64,000 nt of DNA, from assembly GCF_046105845.1 (NCBI RefSeq), contig NZ_CP151004.1; one strand, given 5' to 3'. This DNA comes from Escherichia coli. Lineage in GTDB: Bacteria > Pseudomonadota > Gammaproteobacteria > Enterobacterales > Enterobacteriaceae. The notes beneath the pieces were generated by a model. It saw only the letters and a list, made by a program, of their open reading frames with translations. It ran no database searches and had not been told where the DNA came from. Position 1 is the stretch's first letter. Each line of letters begins with the position of its first letter. This document shows positions 4,130-9,404 of this stretch, piece by piece. Made by a program: the position numbers and the translations under genes.

Positions 4130-5078
4130 ACAGCCAGTTCTTGCGCTTAAAGTACAGATACGGTGCCAGGCCCGCGAGGATCATAAAGATAATCGCGCCA
4201 GGGTAGCCGAAACTCCACTTCAGTTCCGGCATAAACTCAAAGTTCATCCCGTAGCTGGAAGCAACCAGCGTTGGCGGCAGGAACACGACGGATACCACCG
4301 AGAAGATTTTGATGATGCGGTTCTGCTCGATGTTGATAAAGCCCATCGCCGCCTGCATCAGGAAGTTCACCTTCTGGAACAGAGATTCGTTATGCGGCAG
4401 CAGGGATTCGATATCTCGCAGGATTTCACGCGCCTGCTCCAGCTGCCCGCCCGGTAAACGCGCCTTACGCACCAGGAAGTTGAGCGCACGCTGGGTATCC
4501 ATCAGACACAGGCGAACTTTCCAGCCGATATCTTCCAGTTCCGCCAGCGTGGAGAGCGCCTCGTCGTACTCATCGCCCTGATGCCCTTCCATAATTACCC
4601 GGCTCAACTGCTCCAGGTCGCTGTAGATATTTTCAATTTCATCTGCCAACTGTTCGATTTTGGTTTCGAACAGATCCAGCAGCAGCTCGTAGGCGTTACC
4701 GTCCACCATTGACTGGCTACGGGCACGCATACGATACAGACGGAATGCAGGCAGTTCACGCTCACGCAGAGTAAACAGACGACCATCACGGATGGTAAAT
4801 GCCACAGTGGAGTTACCGGCGTGATCTTCCGCATCTTCAAAGAAGAAGAAGGAGTGAATATGCAGGCCGTCATCGTCTTCAAAGAAACGTGCCGATGCTT
4901 CGATGTCTTCCAGTTCCGGGCGGGTTGCCAGGCTCTGACCAAGTTCAGATTGTACGCGCAGTCGCTCGTCGTCGTCCGGTTCGACAAGATCAATCCATAC
5001 TGCATTTACAAGGGGTTGTGACTCTTCGACTTCCAGCCGGGTCAGTCGGTTATTTTCCAGTTGAAATGCGCTCAGCAT
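4128..5078 (-). CDS. corA: Magnesium/cobalt transport protein CorA
   Basis: ORF 4128..5093; internal ATG at 5076-5078 gives the 316-aa protein [16 protein letters not shown]..., with the GMNF motif and two C-terminal TM helices. Confidence 0.95.
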
Positions 5079-5447: not shown

Positions 5448-6212
5448 ATGGCGCATCGGCTACTCATTGGTAAAGGAATGATCACCTTGAATCTCAAACG
5501 GATTTTTCTCACCCTCACCTTACTTCCCTTATTTGCTGTTGCCGCTGATGATTGCGCACTCTCAGATCCGGCGCTGACCGTACAGGCGTATACCGTTAAT
5601 CCTCAAACAGAGCGGGTGAAAATGTACTGGCAAAAAGCCAATGGCGAAGCGTGGGGAACGTTACATGCTCTGCTGGCGGATATTAATAGTCAGGGTCAGG
5701 TGCAGATGGCAATGAACGGCGGCATCTATGATGAAAGCTATGCGCCGCTCGGTTTGTACATCGAAAACGGTCAGCAGAAGGTGGCGTTAAATCTCGCTTC
5801 AGGTGAAGGGAATTTCTTTATTCGTCCTGGCGGCGTGTTTTATGTCGCGGGAGATAAAGTCGGCATCGTTCGTCTGGATGCCTTTAAAACCAGTAAAGAG
5901 ATTCAGTTTGCGGTGCAGTCAGGGCCAATGTTATTAGAAAACGGCGTAATTAATCCGCGTATTCATCCCAACGTCGCCTCACGTAAAATTCGTAACGGTG
6001 TTGGGATTAATAAACAAGGGAACGCCGTGTTTTTGTTGAGCCAGCAGGCGACAAATTTTTATGATTTTGCCTGTTATGCCAAAGCGAAACTGAACGTTGA
6101 GCAGTTGCTTTATCTTGATGGCACAATTTCACATATTTATATGAAAGGCGGGGCAATCCCGTGGCAACGCTATCCTTTTGTCACCATGATTTCCGTCGAG
6201 CGGAAAGGTTAA
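5448..6212 (+). CDS. yigE: DUF2233 (phosphodiester-glycosidase-like) protein with an N-terminal signal peptide
   Basis: 254-aa ORF matching YigE in length; hydrophobic N-terminus LKRIFLTLTLLPLFAVAADD; syntenic next to corA. Confidence 0.8.
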   Translation: MAHRLLIGKGMITLNLKRIFLTLTLLPLFAVAADDCALSDPALTVQAYTVNPQTERVKMYWQKANGEAWGTLHALLADINSQGQVQMAMNGGIYDESYAPLGLYIENGQQKVALNLASGEGNFFIRPGGVFYVAGDKVGIVRLDAFKTSKEIQFAVQSGPMLLENGVINPRIHPNVASRKIRNGVGINKQGNAVFLLSQQATNFYDFACYAKAKLNVEQLLYLDGTISHIYMKGGAIPWQRYPFVTMISVERKG

Positions 6213-6294
6213 GCATTATACACTCGAGGAGGCCAGACAAACTGGGACTGGCTACACAGCTGGAAAATCATCAGATAAATGAAGGGAAACAAAA

Positions 6295-7197
6295 ATGAAA
6301 AAAACGCTCGCAACGTTATTTTTATTAACGTGTCTGGGATCATCATCCGCCTATGCGGATAACGCTTTGATTTTACAAACTGATTTTAGCCTGAAAGATG
6401 GTGCCGTCTCGGCGATGAAAGGGGTCGCATTCGGCGTTGACCATAATCTTAAAATCTTTGATTTAACACACGAAATTCCACCGTATAACATCTGGGAAGG
6501 CGCTTATCGCCTGTATCAGACTGCCAGTTACTGGCCGCAAGGTTCGGTGTTTGTTAGCGTGGTCGATCCGGGCGTAGGCACTGACCGTAAATCGGTAGTG
6601 CTGAAAACCAAAAACGGTCAGTACTTCGTTTCACCAGATAACGGTACGCTCACTTTGGTGGCACAAACTCTGGGTATTGATAGCGTCCGGGAAATCGACG
6701 AAAAAGCTAACCGCCTGAAAGGTTCTGAAAAGTCATATACCTTCCACGGTCGTGACGTGTATGCCTACACCGGTGCGCGTCTGGCTTCCGGGGCGATTAC
6801 GTTCGAACAGGTGGGGCCAGAGCTTCCTGCAAAAGTTGTCGAACTTTCTTATCAGAAAGCAAAAGCAACAAAAGGTGAAGTGAAGGGCAATATCCCGATT
6901 CTCGATATTCAGTACGGCAACGTCTGGAGCAATATCAGCGACGAGTTGCTGAATCAGGCAGGAATCAAACTCAACGACACGTTGTGTGTGACCATTTCCG
7001 AAGGTTCCCAGCAAAAATACGCAGGGAAAATGCCGTATGTCGCAAGTTTCGGCGATGTGCCGGAAGGCCAGCCGATGGTGTATCTGAACAGCTTATTGAA
7101 TGTTTCCGTGGCGCTGAATATGGATAATTTCGCGCAGAAACATCAGGTTGCATCTGGTGCTGACTGGAATATTGATGTGAAGAAGTGCGCTAAGTAA
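6295..7197 (+). CDS. DUF62 / S-adenosyl-L-methionine hydroxide adenosyltransferase-family protein with a predicted Sec signal peptide
   Basis: 300-aa ORF. N-terminus MKKTLATLFLLTCLGSSSAYA is a typical signal peptide. Mature region carries what I recall as the DUF62 hallmarks: ILQTDFSLKDGAVSAMKGV, VVDPGVGTDRK, SPDNGTL and TFHGRDVYAYTG. Preceded by a purine-rich RBS. Confidence 0.8.
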   Translation: MKKTLATLFLLTCLGSSSAYADNALILQTDFSLKDGAVSAMKGVAFGVDHNLKIFDLTHEIPPYNIWEGAYRLYQTASYWPQGSVFVSVVDPGVGTDRKSVVLKTKNGQYFVSPDNGTLTLVAQTLGIDSVREIDEKANRLKGSEKSYTFHGRDVYAYTGARLASGAITFEQVGPELPAKVVELSYQKAKATKGEVKGNIPILDIQYGNVWSNISDELLNQAGIKLNDTLCVTISEGSQQKYAGKMPYVASFGDVPEGQPMVYLNSLLNVSVALNMDNFAQKHQVASGADWNIDVKKCAK

Positions 7198-7205
7198 GGG
7201 GCTGA

Positions 7206-7236
7206 TGCGGAATGCGGTGTGGCGCACCGCATTCCG
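7206..7236. terminator. Perfect 13-bp-stem hairpin between the convergent DUF62 gene and uvrD; probable bidirectional terminator
   Basis: GCGGAATGCGGTG - TGGCG - CACCGCATTCCGC read directly from the sequence. No strong T-run follows. Confidence 0.4.
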
Positions 7237-7241
7237 CAACG

Positions 7242-9404
7242 TCACACCGTCTCCAACCGGGCGTAAGCCGCCACCAGCCATTTAATACCCTGGCCCTGGA
7301 ACGCCACCTGCAAACGGCTATGCTCACCGCTGCCTTCCATATTGACGATGGTGCCTTCACCAAACTTAGCGTGGCGTACGCGCTGGCCGAGCTTGTAGCT
7401 GCTGTCGTTCTCGACCATCGGCGTACCCATCCGTTGATGGCTGACCGGGCGGCTTACCGTGGCGCGCAGGCGCACCTCTTCCACACACTCTTCCGGCAGC
7501 TCGCCGATAAAGCGCGACGGGCGATGGTAAACCTCTTTGCCATACAAACGGCGAGTTTCCGCGTAGGTCAGCGTCAGTTTCTGCATCGCGCGGGTTACGC
7601 CAACGTAGGCCAGACGGCGTTCTTCTTCCAGACGTCCGCCTTCATCCAGCGACATCTGGCTTGGGAACATGCCTTCTTCCATACCAACGATAAACACCTG
7701 CGGGAACTCCAGCCCTTTCGCCGAGTGTAGCGTCATCAACTGCACCGCATCCTGCCAGGTATCCGCCTGCCCCTCGCCCGCTTCCAGTGCCGCATGGGAG
7801 AGGAACGCCTGCAGCGGCATTAAATCTTCGTCTTCTTCGTTGTAGCTGAACTGGCGCGTCGCCGTCACCAGTTCCTCTAAGTTTTCGATACGCGTCTGTC
7901 CTTTTTCGCCCTTCTCCTGCTCGTACATGGTGCGCAGGCCGGAGTCTTTAATGACCCGGTCAGTCTGTACATGCAGCGGCATATCGGCAGTTTCCTGCGC
8001 TAAGGCGTCGATCAGTTCCATAAACCGTTGCAAGGCACTGGCAGCACGTCCGGCGAGGGCTTTTTCCTGCAACAGTTCACGACATGCCTGCCAGAGTGTT
8101 AACTGACGATCGCGCGATGTCTGACGTACCACGTCCAGCGTCCGGTCACCAATACCCCGCGTTGGCGTATTCACCACGCGCTCAAAGGCCGCGTCGTCGT
8201 TGCGGTTGGCAATCAGGCGCAGATATGAGAGCGCGTCTTTGATTTCCTGACGTTCGAAGAAGCGCATCCCGCCGTAAATACGGTACGGCATACTCGCCTG
8301 CAACAGTGCTTCTTCCAGCACGCGCGACTGGGCGTTGCTGCGGTAGAGAATGGCGCACTCGGCGAGCGCCCCGCCGTTGTCCTGCCAGGTCTTGATACGG
8401 TTAACCACAAAACGCGCTTCGTCGAGTTCGTTAAAAGCGCAATAGAGGGAAATCGGCTCACCGTCCGCGCCATCGGTCCACAGTTTTTTACCCAGACGCC
8501 CGTTGTTGTTTTCAATCAGGGCGTTAGCGGCGCTCAGAATATTGCTGGTAGAGCGGTAGTTTTGCTCCAGACGAATAGTTTCGGCACCGGGGAAATCATT
8601 AAGGAAACGCTGAATATTCTCCACCTGCGCCCCGCGCCAGCCGTAGATTGACTGGTCGTCATCGCCAACGATCATCACTTTGCCGGTGTCGCCCGCCAGC
8701 AGGCGGATCCACGCGTACTGAATGTTGTTGGTATCCTGGAATTCGTCCACCAGGATGTTAGTAAAACGTTCGCGGTAGTGTTGCAGGATATGCGGCTTGT
8801 TAAGCCACAACTCGTGAGCACGTAGCAGCAGCTCGGCGAAGTCCACCAGGCCCGCGCGGTCACACGCTTCCTGATACGCCTGATACACCTTCTGCCAGGT
8901 CTGCTCCACCGGATTACCGTAGCTTTGAATATGATGTGGACGCAGGCCTTCATCTTTCTGGCTGTTGATGTACCACATTGCCTGGCGCGGCGGCCACTGC
9001 TTCTCGTCGAGGTTCATCGCCTTGATTAGGCGTTTGAGCAGGCGTAGCTGGTCCTCGCTGTCGAGGATCTGAAAATCCTGCGGCAGATTGGCGTCCATAT
9101 GGTGCGCACGCAGCAGACGGTGCGCCAGCCCGTGGAAGGTGCCGACCCACATGCCGCCCTGGCTGGTGCCCATCAGCTGCCCGATACGATGACGCATCTC
9201 CGCCGCCGCTTTGTTGGTAAACGTTACCGCCATAATCGAGTATGGCGAGCAGTTTTCCACGCTCATCAGCCAGGCGATACGATGCACCAATACGCGCGTC
9301 TTACCACTGCCCGCGCCCGCCAGCACCAGAAGGTTGCTGCGTGGCGCGGCCACCGCTTCGCGCTGTTTGTCATTAAGGCTGTCGAGCAGGTAAGAAACGT
9401 CCAT
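7242..9404 (-). CDS. uvrD: DNA helicase II (UvrD)
   Basis: ORF 7242..9590; internal ATG at 9402-9404 yields the 720-aa protein [38 protein letters not shown]... with Walker A. Confidence 0.95.
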   Translation of the reverse strand: MDVSYLLDSLNDKQREAVAAPRSNLLVLAGAGSGKTRVLVHRIAWLMSVENCSPYSIMAVTFTNKAAAEMRHRIGQLMGTSQGGMWVGTFHGLAHRLLRAHHMDANLPQDFQILDSEDQLRLLKRLIKAMNLDEKQWPPRQAMWYINSQKDEGLRPHHIQSYGNPVEQTWQKVYQAYQEACDRAGLVDFAELLLRAHELWLNKPHILQHYRERFTNILVDEFQDTNNIQYAWIRLLAGDTGKVMIVGDDDQSIYGWRGAQVENIQRFLNDFPGAETIRLEQNYRSTSNILSAANALIENNNGRLGKKLWTDGADGEPISLYCAFNELDEARFVVNRIKTWQDNGGALAECAILYRSNAQSRVLEEALLQASMPYRIYGGMRFFERQEIKDALSYLRLIANRNDDAAFERVVNTPTRGIGDRTLDVVRQTSRDRQLTLWQACRELLQEKALAGRAASALQRFMELIDALAQETADMPLHVQTDRVIKDSGLRTMYEQEKGEKGQTRIENLEELVTATRQFSYNEEDEDLMPLQAFLSHAALEAGEGQADTWQDAVQLMTLHSAKGLEFPQVFIVGMEEGMFPSQMSLDEGGRLEEERRLAYVGVTRAMQKLTLTYAETRRLYGKEVYHRPSRFIGELPEECVEEVRLRATVSRPVSHQRMGTPMVENDSSYKLGQRVRHAKFGEGTIVNMEGSGEHSRLQVAFQGQGIKWLVAAYARLETV

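Follow-up and report, generated by a model that had tools for sequence, protein, structure and literature searches.

Between yigE and uvrD, a 64,000-nucleotide (nt) stretch of Escherichia coli DNA (contig NZ_CP151004.1; the whole stretch is called the window below) harbors a gene for a DUF62-family protein that, judging from its sequence and those of its relatives, is very probably an exported enzyme of the hydrolase type. The DUF62 family consists of adenosine-forming S-adenosylmethionine (SAM) hydrolases and a few halogenases. The explanation that best accounts for the whole of the evidence, which we hold tentatively, is a Sec-exported, periplasmic hydrolase-type DUF62 enzyme that would cleave SAM for scavenging.

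The open reading frame (ORF) encodes 300 amino acids (6295..7197, + strand), and its ATG is the earliest start codon past the upstream in-frame stop. All of the DUF62 motifs that a preliminary description of this DNA had listed are present: TDF at residues 29-31, MKGV at 41-44, VVDPGVGTDR at 89-98, DNG at 115-117, and FHGRD at 150-154. The Pfam match expected in that description was also obtained, with SAM_HAT_N (PF01887) covering residues 26-174 (E 4.9e-53), and it is accompanied by SAM_HAT_C (PF20257) over residues 198-291 (E 3.9e-18). The closest solved relative is Thermotoga maritima 2zbu (E 1e-43); the chlorinase SalL and the fluorinase FlA match the protein at about 1e-35 and 1e-22. With the NCBIfam equivalog models of (R)-SAM hydrolases, NF058624 and NF053629, the protein scores 131.5 bits against a cut-off of 350 and 116.9 bits against a cut-off of 470, and with the fluorinase model TIGR04507 it scores 83.9 bits against a cut-off of 400. 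The DUF62 protein belongs to the family defined by PF01887 and PF20257, and to no curated functional subgroup. RefSeq names the product of the ORF "SAM hydrolase/SAM-dependent halogenase family protein". The gene is under strong purifying selection, with a ratio of nonsynonymous to synonymous divergence (dN/dS) of 0.03-0.07 both within Escherichia and between Escherichia and Helicobacter. As a side observation, a wrong name, "acetolactate synthase", is attached to many Shigella, E. coli and H. pylori entries (P0006, P0009, P0043, P0060 and others), a misannotation that has spread among database entries.

The prediction of export rests on the N-terminus and on its counterparts in homologs. The first residues read MKK / TLATLFLLTCLG / SSSAYA, followed by DNALILQTDF, and thus comprise a charged, a hydrophobic and an A-x-A part. 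The solved cytoplasmic homologs begin later, so that residues 24-28 of the DUF62 protein align with residues 3-5 of the PDB chains. The next in-frame methionine is M41, where a start would delete the invariant TDF motif, and there is no start codon further upstream. To assess how general the feature is, we used orthologous ORFs from 80 GTDB species-representative loci, retained by a scan that relied on peptide patterns, together with full-length representatives of 50%-identity clusters. Among the 156 full-length relatives, 124 have a hydrophobic N-terminal extension, 29 start at (A)LVxQ(T/S)DF, and three are ambiguous. Of the 124 extensions, 111 are signal peptidase I-like and 13 carry a lipobox; the -3/-1 small-residue rule holds for 106 of the 111 without a lipobox. 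The extensions are unrelated in sequence; what is conserved is their presence. They extend over about eight phyla, with examples from Proteobacteria, Bacteroidota, Verrucomicrobiota, Synergistota, Firmicutes (Tissierellia), Fusobacteriota, Thermotogota and Planctomycetota, and 46 of the 77 closest full-length cluster representatives carry export signals. Close relatives that lack the extension exist too (P0128, P0129), which indicates that the extension is an added feature. The signal peptide proposed in the preliminary description is thus borne out by inspection and by its conservation in 124 relatives. That description had found an exported member of a SAM-cleaving family puzzling; the literature searched, which mostly excludes subscription journals, contains no treatment of this puzzle and no mention of export in the DUF62 family.

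The cysteine pattern is of the same kind. Mature domains of the signal-peptide type mostly contain no cysteine or two, vs. a mean of 3.8 in the cytoplasmic type. Cys231 and Cys298 occur together in 33 proteobacterial sequences of the signal-peptide type and in none of the 29 cytoplasmic ones, and this co-occurrence suggests a Cys231-Cys298 disulfide. Some exported relatives are fused to other domains. Two 640-residue exported proteins from Fervidobacterium metagenome-assembled genomes (L073 from 4971, L080 from 4953) combine DUF62 with a second SAM_HAT_C and a Y_phosphatase3 domain (HCxxGxxR), P0204 joins DUF62 to a D-Ala-D-Ala dipeptidase domain (Peptidase_M15), and P0161 joins it to an alpha/beta hydrolase. 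These fusions to hydrolases lend slight weight to a general hydrolytic role outside the cell.

Within the family, the water-activating His-Arg-Asp triad is confined to the hydrolases (PMC10491745); in PH0463 it is formed by D68, R75 and H127 (PMC4859513). In a HMMER alignment to solved structures, the DUF62 protein has VVDxGVGTxRK and FHGRD in common with 2zbu, and the triad positions are occupied by D91, R98 and H151, where the chlorinase SalL has Tyr70, Thr and Tyr. This difference argues for a protein of the hydrolase type. Residues conserved in at least 90% of both the signal-peptide-type (n = 124) and the cytoplasmic-type (n = 29) sequences include D30, H59, D91-P-G-V-G, R98, P114-D-N-G and F150-x-G-R-D. 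In the signal-peptide type, the triad is represented by D91 in 119, R98 in 115 and H151 in 105 of the 124 sequences; His151 is thus somewhat less conserved, and is found in 26 of the 29 cytoplasmic sequences. As for the nucleoside-binding motifs, D30 is 100% conserved and P114-D-N-G at least 94%, and LDIQYGN stands at residues 203-209. Catalytic and nucleoside-binding residues are therefore conserved alike in the two groups. Conserved in the signal-peptide group only are K42, G160, Y207 and N209, the last of which may reflect an alignment artefact in the cytoplasmic group.

On the explanation that we prefer, cleavage between Ala21 and Asp22 would yield a mature enzyme in the periplasm, perhaps stabilized by the Cys231-Cys298 pair. 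Activated water would then attack C5' of SAM (either sulfonium epimer), or of a very close 5'-sulfonium adenosine, with the release of adenosine and L-methionine. Nucleoside and methionine transporters would take up both products, and an external cofactor would thereby be scavenged. E. coli imports nucleosides and methionine and, to our knowledge, has no SAM transporter, so that SAM would not be importable intact, whereas its products would be. That SAM salvage is the physiological role is a still more tentative proposal than the assignment as a whole.

Several points weigh against this explanation. No transporter or salvage gene is conserved beside the DUF62 gene across 78 loci. The export of these members is predicted from sequence, with the signal peptide judged by inspection and heuristics along with its conservation in homologs. 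Because the scores lie far under the (R)-SAM hydrolase equivalog cut-offs, the identity of the substrate is not transferable by homology. The DUF62 enzymes characterized so far work slowly, with selectivity for (R,S)-SAM, and there is dispute about what they do physiologically (PMC12120602). HP0709, the copy of the gene in Helicobacter pylori, appears in outer-membrane-vesicle protein lists (PMC8756444); such lists include ribosomal proteins, which makes them weak evidence for export.

An exported enzyme that acts on a substrate other than SAM is the alternative that survives best, although we consider it unlikely. Decarboxylated SAM, a SAM-derived natural product, a nucleoside antibiotic or a 5'-halo-adenosine might be the target, in detoxification or processing. 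Such a substrate would fit the low equivalog scores and the four residues particular to the signal-peptide group (with the same reservation for N209), and the physiological substrate of DUF62 enzymes has been questioned (PMC12120602). However, the triad and the ribose- and adenine-binding motifs are unchanged, and the surroundings contain no conserved biosynthetic or resistance genes. SN2 displacement also calls for a good leaving group at C5', a point in favor of a sulfonium.

The closest counterparts outside Escherichia and Shigella are the proteins of H. pylori and H. acinonychis, which are 89-91% identical to the DUF62 protein along its full 300 residues; a single 90%-identity cluster comprises 2579 member sequences. 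HP0709 (= jhp0648) lies in a conserved chromosomal context, uvrA - omp - rsmH - HP0708 - HP0709 - homA. Its nucleotide sequence can be aligned with that of the window without gaps at 84.8% identity (68% at third codon positions), and nucleotide homology between the two loci is confined to positions 6269-7203 of the window, that is, the gene, 26 nt of leader and 6 nt of trailer. The next species representatives, from Aeromonas, Edwardsiella, Pasteurellaceae and Neisseriales metagenome bins, are 72-76% identical. In the neighbor-joining tree, with bootstrap support taken by counting bipartitions, Escherichia (98%) and Helicobacter (97%) form sister clades (100% together) that join Edwardsiella (79%) within sequences from gamma- and betaproteobacteria; no further Campylobacterota came up. 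The simplest reading is that HP0709 is a xenolog, probably transferred from an enterobacterial lineage to the H. pylori/H. acinonychis lineage, an event of which no account was found in the literature searched. The GC content is 42.9% in the H. pylori gene (locus 38%) and 47.6% in the window gene (window 52.4%), and the intermediate values of both copies indicate partial adjustment to their hosts. Synonymous divergence (dS) between Escherichia and Helicobacter is 0.85-1.0, vs. at most 0.37 within Escherichia, so the transfer would not be recent. All Escherichia alleles are 82-85% identical to H. pylori at the nucleotide level and shared-site counts favor none of them; E. coli itself is thus not shown to be the donor. 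The dN/dS of about 0.06 between the two genera indicates that strong constraint was kept in both hosts.

A known hotspot of prophage integration adjoins the HP0709 locus (PMC11321410). The record "Helicobacter phage Pt11444_1" (L088, PQ159899.1) was considered as an instance of phage carriage and rejected, as it extends into the chromosomal uvrA-HP0709-homA region; it holds uvrA, omp, rsmH, HP0708, HP0709 and homA, and its prophage boundary is over-extended.

H. pylori is a methionine auxotroph (PMC2923134) and lacks de novo purine synthesis (PMC8502122), and adenosine supports its efficient growth, with import via a NupC homolog (PMC3368855). In this bacterium, a periplasmic SAM hydrolase would yield two essential nutrients from one external cofactor. 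The substitution D49N in HP0709 (Asp in "safe", Asn in "risk" strains) is among the top gastric-cancer variants of a genome-wide association study (GWAS) in H. pylori (PMC6090961), and the authors of that study call HP0709 "adenosyl-chloride synthase" and speculate on a role in branched-chain amino-acid synthesis (PMC6090961). Codon 49 corresponds to positions 6439-6441 of the window, and the E. coli residue is also Asp. A different function, host modulation through an extracellular adenosine signal or the depletion of host SAM, would make the protein a colonization factor, mainly in H. pylori. The purifying selection on HP0709 after inter-phylum transfer, the place of D49N among the GWAS variants (PMC6090961) and the listing of HP0709 in vesicle proteomes are consistent with such a role. 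We nevertheless regard it as improbable, because members of the same clade occur, without a host, in soil and water Chitinophaga, Verrucomicrobia, Aeromonas and Thermotogota, and the GWAS result is an association only.

The distribution of the gene in E. coli was assessed by megablast with the 1029-bp yigE-uvrD interval. Of 5426 complete E. coli genomes, 2413 contain it; each of these has a single copy, which in every case is chromosomal. Carriers include O157:H7, ST131, BL21/Rosetta-type B strains and PCN033, and the protein database contains near-identical Shigella copies. Up to about 119 genomes have the DUF62 gene without full coverage of the interval. As the preliminary description had surmised, K-12-type genomes lack the gene; they have a 146-bp spacer in its place. 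A sensitive blastn search of this spacer against the 1029-bp interval for a remnant of the DUF62 gene matched no more than the final 18 nt, the part that forms the right arm of the hairpin next to uvrD (see below). The spacer contains a repetitive extragenic palindromic (REP)-like element, GCCGGATGCGGCG...CCGGCCTAC (GCCGGATGCGGCGTAAACGCCCTATCCGGCCTAC, at 4159-4192 of the K-12 locus L001). The REP-like element may have taken part in a deletion. Plasmid carriage was also considered and rejected, since the 99-100%-identical matches in the plasmid collection are 4.9-Mb chromosomes filed as plasmids.

The same description had suggested a strain-variable insertion into a conserved region, and here the evidence points the other way. 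No integrase, insertion sequence or other mobility gene flanks the DUF62 gene, nor do direct repeats at its junctions. Two divergent Escherichia genomes (L007 and L008), whose uvrD is 94.4% and 93.7% identical to that of the window, have the gene at the same site, with a dS of 0.26-0.30 for DUF62 and 0.26-0.46 for the flanking yigE. A common site and a divergence in step with that of yigE (and uvrD) argue for ancestral presence followed by loss, over a recent insertion. The data fit better with a DUF62 gene that was ancestral at the yigE-uvrD site and has since disappeared from about 55% of E. coli, K-12 among them. The GTDB scan (80 loci, based on peptide patterns) found no copy in other Escherichia species, Salmonella or Citrobacter, an absence that is provisional.

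Three further loci deserve mention. In E. coli 2020S05-013-18 (L090, 3263-3448), a third allele lacks yigE and has 186 bp of unrelated upstream sequence; its divergent DUF62 gene (about 95% nucleotide identity) keeps a conserved leader of about 50 nt, and its signal peptide and leader are nearer to the H. pylori copy than are those of other E. coli alleles. E. coli HS-02 (L087, 4915-5772; H70) has a frameshifted DUF62 copy with an internal stop and 80.8% identity. It was rejected as an intermediate allele, being either a decaying pseudogene or the product of an error-rich assembly; yigF has an internal stop there as well. In PCN033 (L002, 657-1999), a YPO3983-family gene and a DUF943 gene between rarD and corA replace yigG and yigF of K-12 and of the window, so that variation recurs within a few kb of the DUF62 locus, at rarD-corA.

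The coordinates of the features at the locus are summarized in the table.

Table. Features of the DUF62 gene and its surroundings (positions in the window).
Feature	Position	Strand	Basis
CDS, predicted exported DUF62 / SAM hydroxide adenosyltransferase-family protein, 300 amino acids + stop	6295..7197	+	ORF and Pfam
Predicted signal peptide, residues 1-21 (MKKTLATLFLLTCLGSSSAYA), predicted cleavage before Asp22	6295..6357	+	Extension relative to solved cytoplasmic homologs; relatives
N-terminal catalytic domain SAM_HAT_N, residues 26-174	6370..6816	+	Pfam
C-terminal beta domain SAM_HAT_C, residues 198-291	6886..7167	+	Pfam
Asp91 codon, triad residue 1 (PH0463 Asp68; SalL Tyr70 position)	6565..6567	+	Alignment, PMC4859513
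Arg98 codon, triad residue 2 (PH0463 Arg75)	6586..6588	+	Alignment
His151 codon, triad residue 3 (PH0463 His127; Tyr in SalL)	6745..6747	+	Alignment
Cys231 codon, candidate disulfide partner	6985..6987	+	Co-occurrence with Cys298
Cys298 codon, candidate disulfide partner, C-terminal tail	7186..7188	+	Co-occurrence with Cys231
Conserved 5' leader, Shine-Dalgarno-like (CATCAGATAA...GGGAAA...ATG)	6269..6294	+	Homology with the HP0709 locus; kept in L090
Perfect inverted repeat (14 bp, 5-nt loop) separating the convergent genes DUF62 and uvrD	7206..7238	.	Arms 7206-7219 / 7225-7238
yigE (NAGPA / phosphodiester glycosidase family), upstream neighbor in Escherichia only; functional partnership with the DUF62 gene not supported	5448..6212	+	Pfam, tblastn

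The upstream neighbor, yigE, is co-oriented with the DUF62 gene and ends 82 bp before it, and YigE matches the Pfam family NAGPA (PF09992, the former DUF2233), both as previously described. PADLOC gave no match for either protein that would point to a role in defense. The two genes had been proposed to form a periplasmic module, which would be a co-transcribed pair acting on a common substrate. Their common orientation, the short spacer without any terminator-like or promoter-like site, and the signal peptides on both products agree with this proposal, yet we judge it even less probable than host modulation. A tblastn search with YigE matched four loci, all from Escherichia (L001, L002, L007 and L008), and not one of the 78 loci of other taxa, so the adjacency is found in Escherichia only. 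Most E. coli have yigE alone (the K-12 type), some have DUF62 alone with its own conserved leader (L090), and the H. pylori copy has only 26 nt of upstream sequence in common. The existence of both single-gene alleles and the restriction of the adjacency to Escherichia indicate that yigE and DUF62 are independent units, and the DUF62 gene is, as far as its sequence context tells, a stand-alone gene. ORF clustering over the 78 loci revealed no neighbor conserved across taxa, only synteny at the level of the genus; the neighboring clusters are otherwise generic (GGDEF, DEAD-box, ABC-F, LysR). The promoter and terminator scan gave counts at the level of shuffled sequence and no promoter-like or terminator-like site in the 82-bp spacer; yigE and DUF62 may be co-transcribed in the window strain.

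The annotated start of yigE is itself probably too far upstream. The annotated N-terminus (MAHRLLIGKGMITLNLKR...) places 10 residues before a typical signal peptide (window 5448-5480), and according to a ribosome-profiling paper transcription of yigE in K-12 begins between the two candidate starts, so that the downstream one is used (PMC4909307).

On the other side, uvrD is convergent with the DUF62 gene, with its stop codon at 7242-7244 (- strand). The hairpin between the two genes, noted before as a perfect 13-bp repeat ending at 7236, is real and perfect, but its arms are 14 bp long and it ends at 7238. The arms are 100% complementary, with an RNA folding energy of -32.4 kcal/mol and a z-score of -4.7 relative to shuffles. 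There is no T-run on either strand of 7206-7238 and the terminator scan made no call there; without a U-tract, the hairpin, which had been described as closing off the gene, is not a canonical intrinsic terminator. Its right arm, which adjoins the uvrD stop codon, is also present in the K-12 allele. In 13 Aeromonas loci (L030, 10029-10670, and 12 others), a gene for an exported RNase T2/RNase I-like protein follows DUF62 at a distance of about 4 kb on the downstream side; its motifs HGLWPQ...HEWQKHGTC were seen by eye, and the synteny holds within the genus only.

Two further alternatives fare worse than the yigE module. The DUF62 protein could be a cytoplasmic housekeeping hydrolase of (R)-SAM, whose hydrophobic N-terminus is a membrane tether or without function, as the characterized members of the family are all cytoplasmic (PMC10491745). 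We consider this very improbable: the two lysines, the hydrophobic core and the A-x-A pattern predict an outward-facing C-terminal domain, the lipobox variants and the even number of cysteines are typical of exported proteins, and close relatives without the extension (P0128, P0129) mark it as an addition. Least probable of all is a SAM-dependent halogenase (chlorinase), as implied by the database name "adenosyl-chloride synthase", by a family name that includes halogenases, by the alignment with SalL and by the chloride-rich stomach; we reject it on the active-site residues (Asp/Arg/His for Tyr70/Thr/Tyr) and on the model scores (84 bits vs. the 400-bit fluorinase cut-off), and the tested DUF62 hydrolases yielded no 5'-chloro-deoxyadenosine (PMC12120602).

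Comparison with known systems places the predicted periplasmic SAM-cleaving enzyme close to the characterized hydrolases. PH0463 of Pyrococcus horikoshii, SaDUF62 and StDUF62 of Salinispora and T. maritima 2zbu likewise belong to PF01887 and PF20257, have the Asp-Arg-His triad, and have the TDF, PxNG and [I/L]DxxYGN motifs in common with the DUF62 protein. Unlike these cytoplasmic enzymes, the DUF62 protein has a predicted cleavable signal peptide, a cysteine pair and a short C-terminal tail, and some of its relatives have a lipobox; the housekeeping rationale of cytoplasmic (R)-SAM removal would not apply to it if it resides outside the cytoplasm. The halogenases SalL and FlA have a homologous fold, but their halide-site residues (the Tyr70/Gly131 context of SalL; Thr80 and Ser158 of FlA) are lacking in the DUF62 protein, which has the hydrolase triad instead. 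Nucleotides and cofactors that cannot be imported are made importable by exported hydrolases such as UshA, CpdB and AphA in E. coli and NadN and e(P4) in Haemophilus. The scavenging proposed for the DUF62 protein would follow the same logic, as a functional analogy only: the UshA-type enzymes have an unrelated fold and hydrolyze phosphoesters, whereas the DUF62 protein would cleave the C5'-S bond by SN2 attack of water. The SAM lyase of the phage T3 type (SAMase), which is cytoplasmic, counters restriction and yields 5'-methylthioadenosine (MTA) and homoserine lactone, also destroys SAM. Its fold is unrelated to that of the DUF62 protein, and the DUF62 gene has neither a PADLOC match nor genuine phage carriage.

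In its broadest form, the proposal would be that a cross-phylum clade of exported DUF62 enzymes harvests environmental or host SAM for methionine, sulphur and purine, that H. pylori acquired HP0709 from an enterobacterial lineage and retains it under strong selection as a nutrient-acquisition factor that matters for colonization, and that within E. coli the trait varies, setting B, O157, ST131 and Shigella lineages apart from K-12. We advance this wider scenario as speculative, and doubtful in its entirety.

A single role has been proposed for DUF62 enzymes, namely that they rid the cytoplasm of the inactive (R)-epimer of SAM, and published work has cast doubt on it (PMC12120602). With export signals in 46 of the 77 closest representatives, that proposal cannot account for the family as a whole, and an extracytoplasmic role is likely on the sequence evidence. 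The exported variant is widespread; no description of it was found in the literature searched, and RefSeq already names the gene at the level of the family. Through this variant the purpose of DUF62 becomes directly testable, with natural controls at hand: K-12 without the gene, BL21-type strains with it, and H. pylori, an auxotroph for both of the predicted products. HP0709 would also be a clean case of inter-phylum transfer, from enteric gammaproteobacteria to a gastric bacterium, in a gene that is already a gastric-cancer GWAS gene without a functional explanation.

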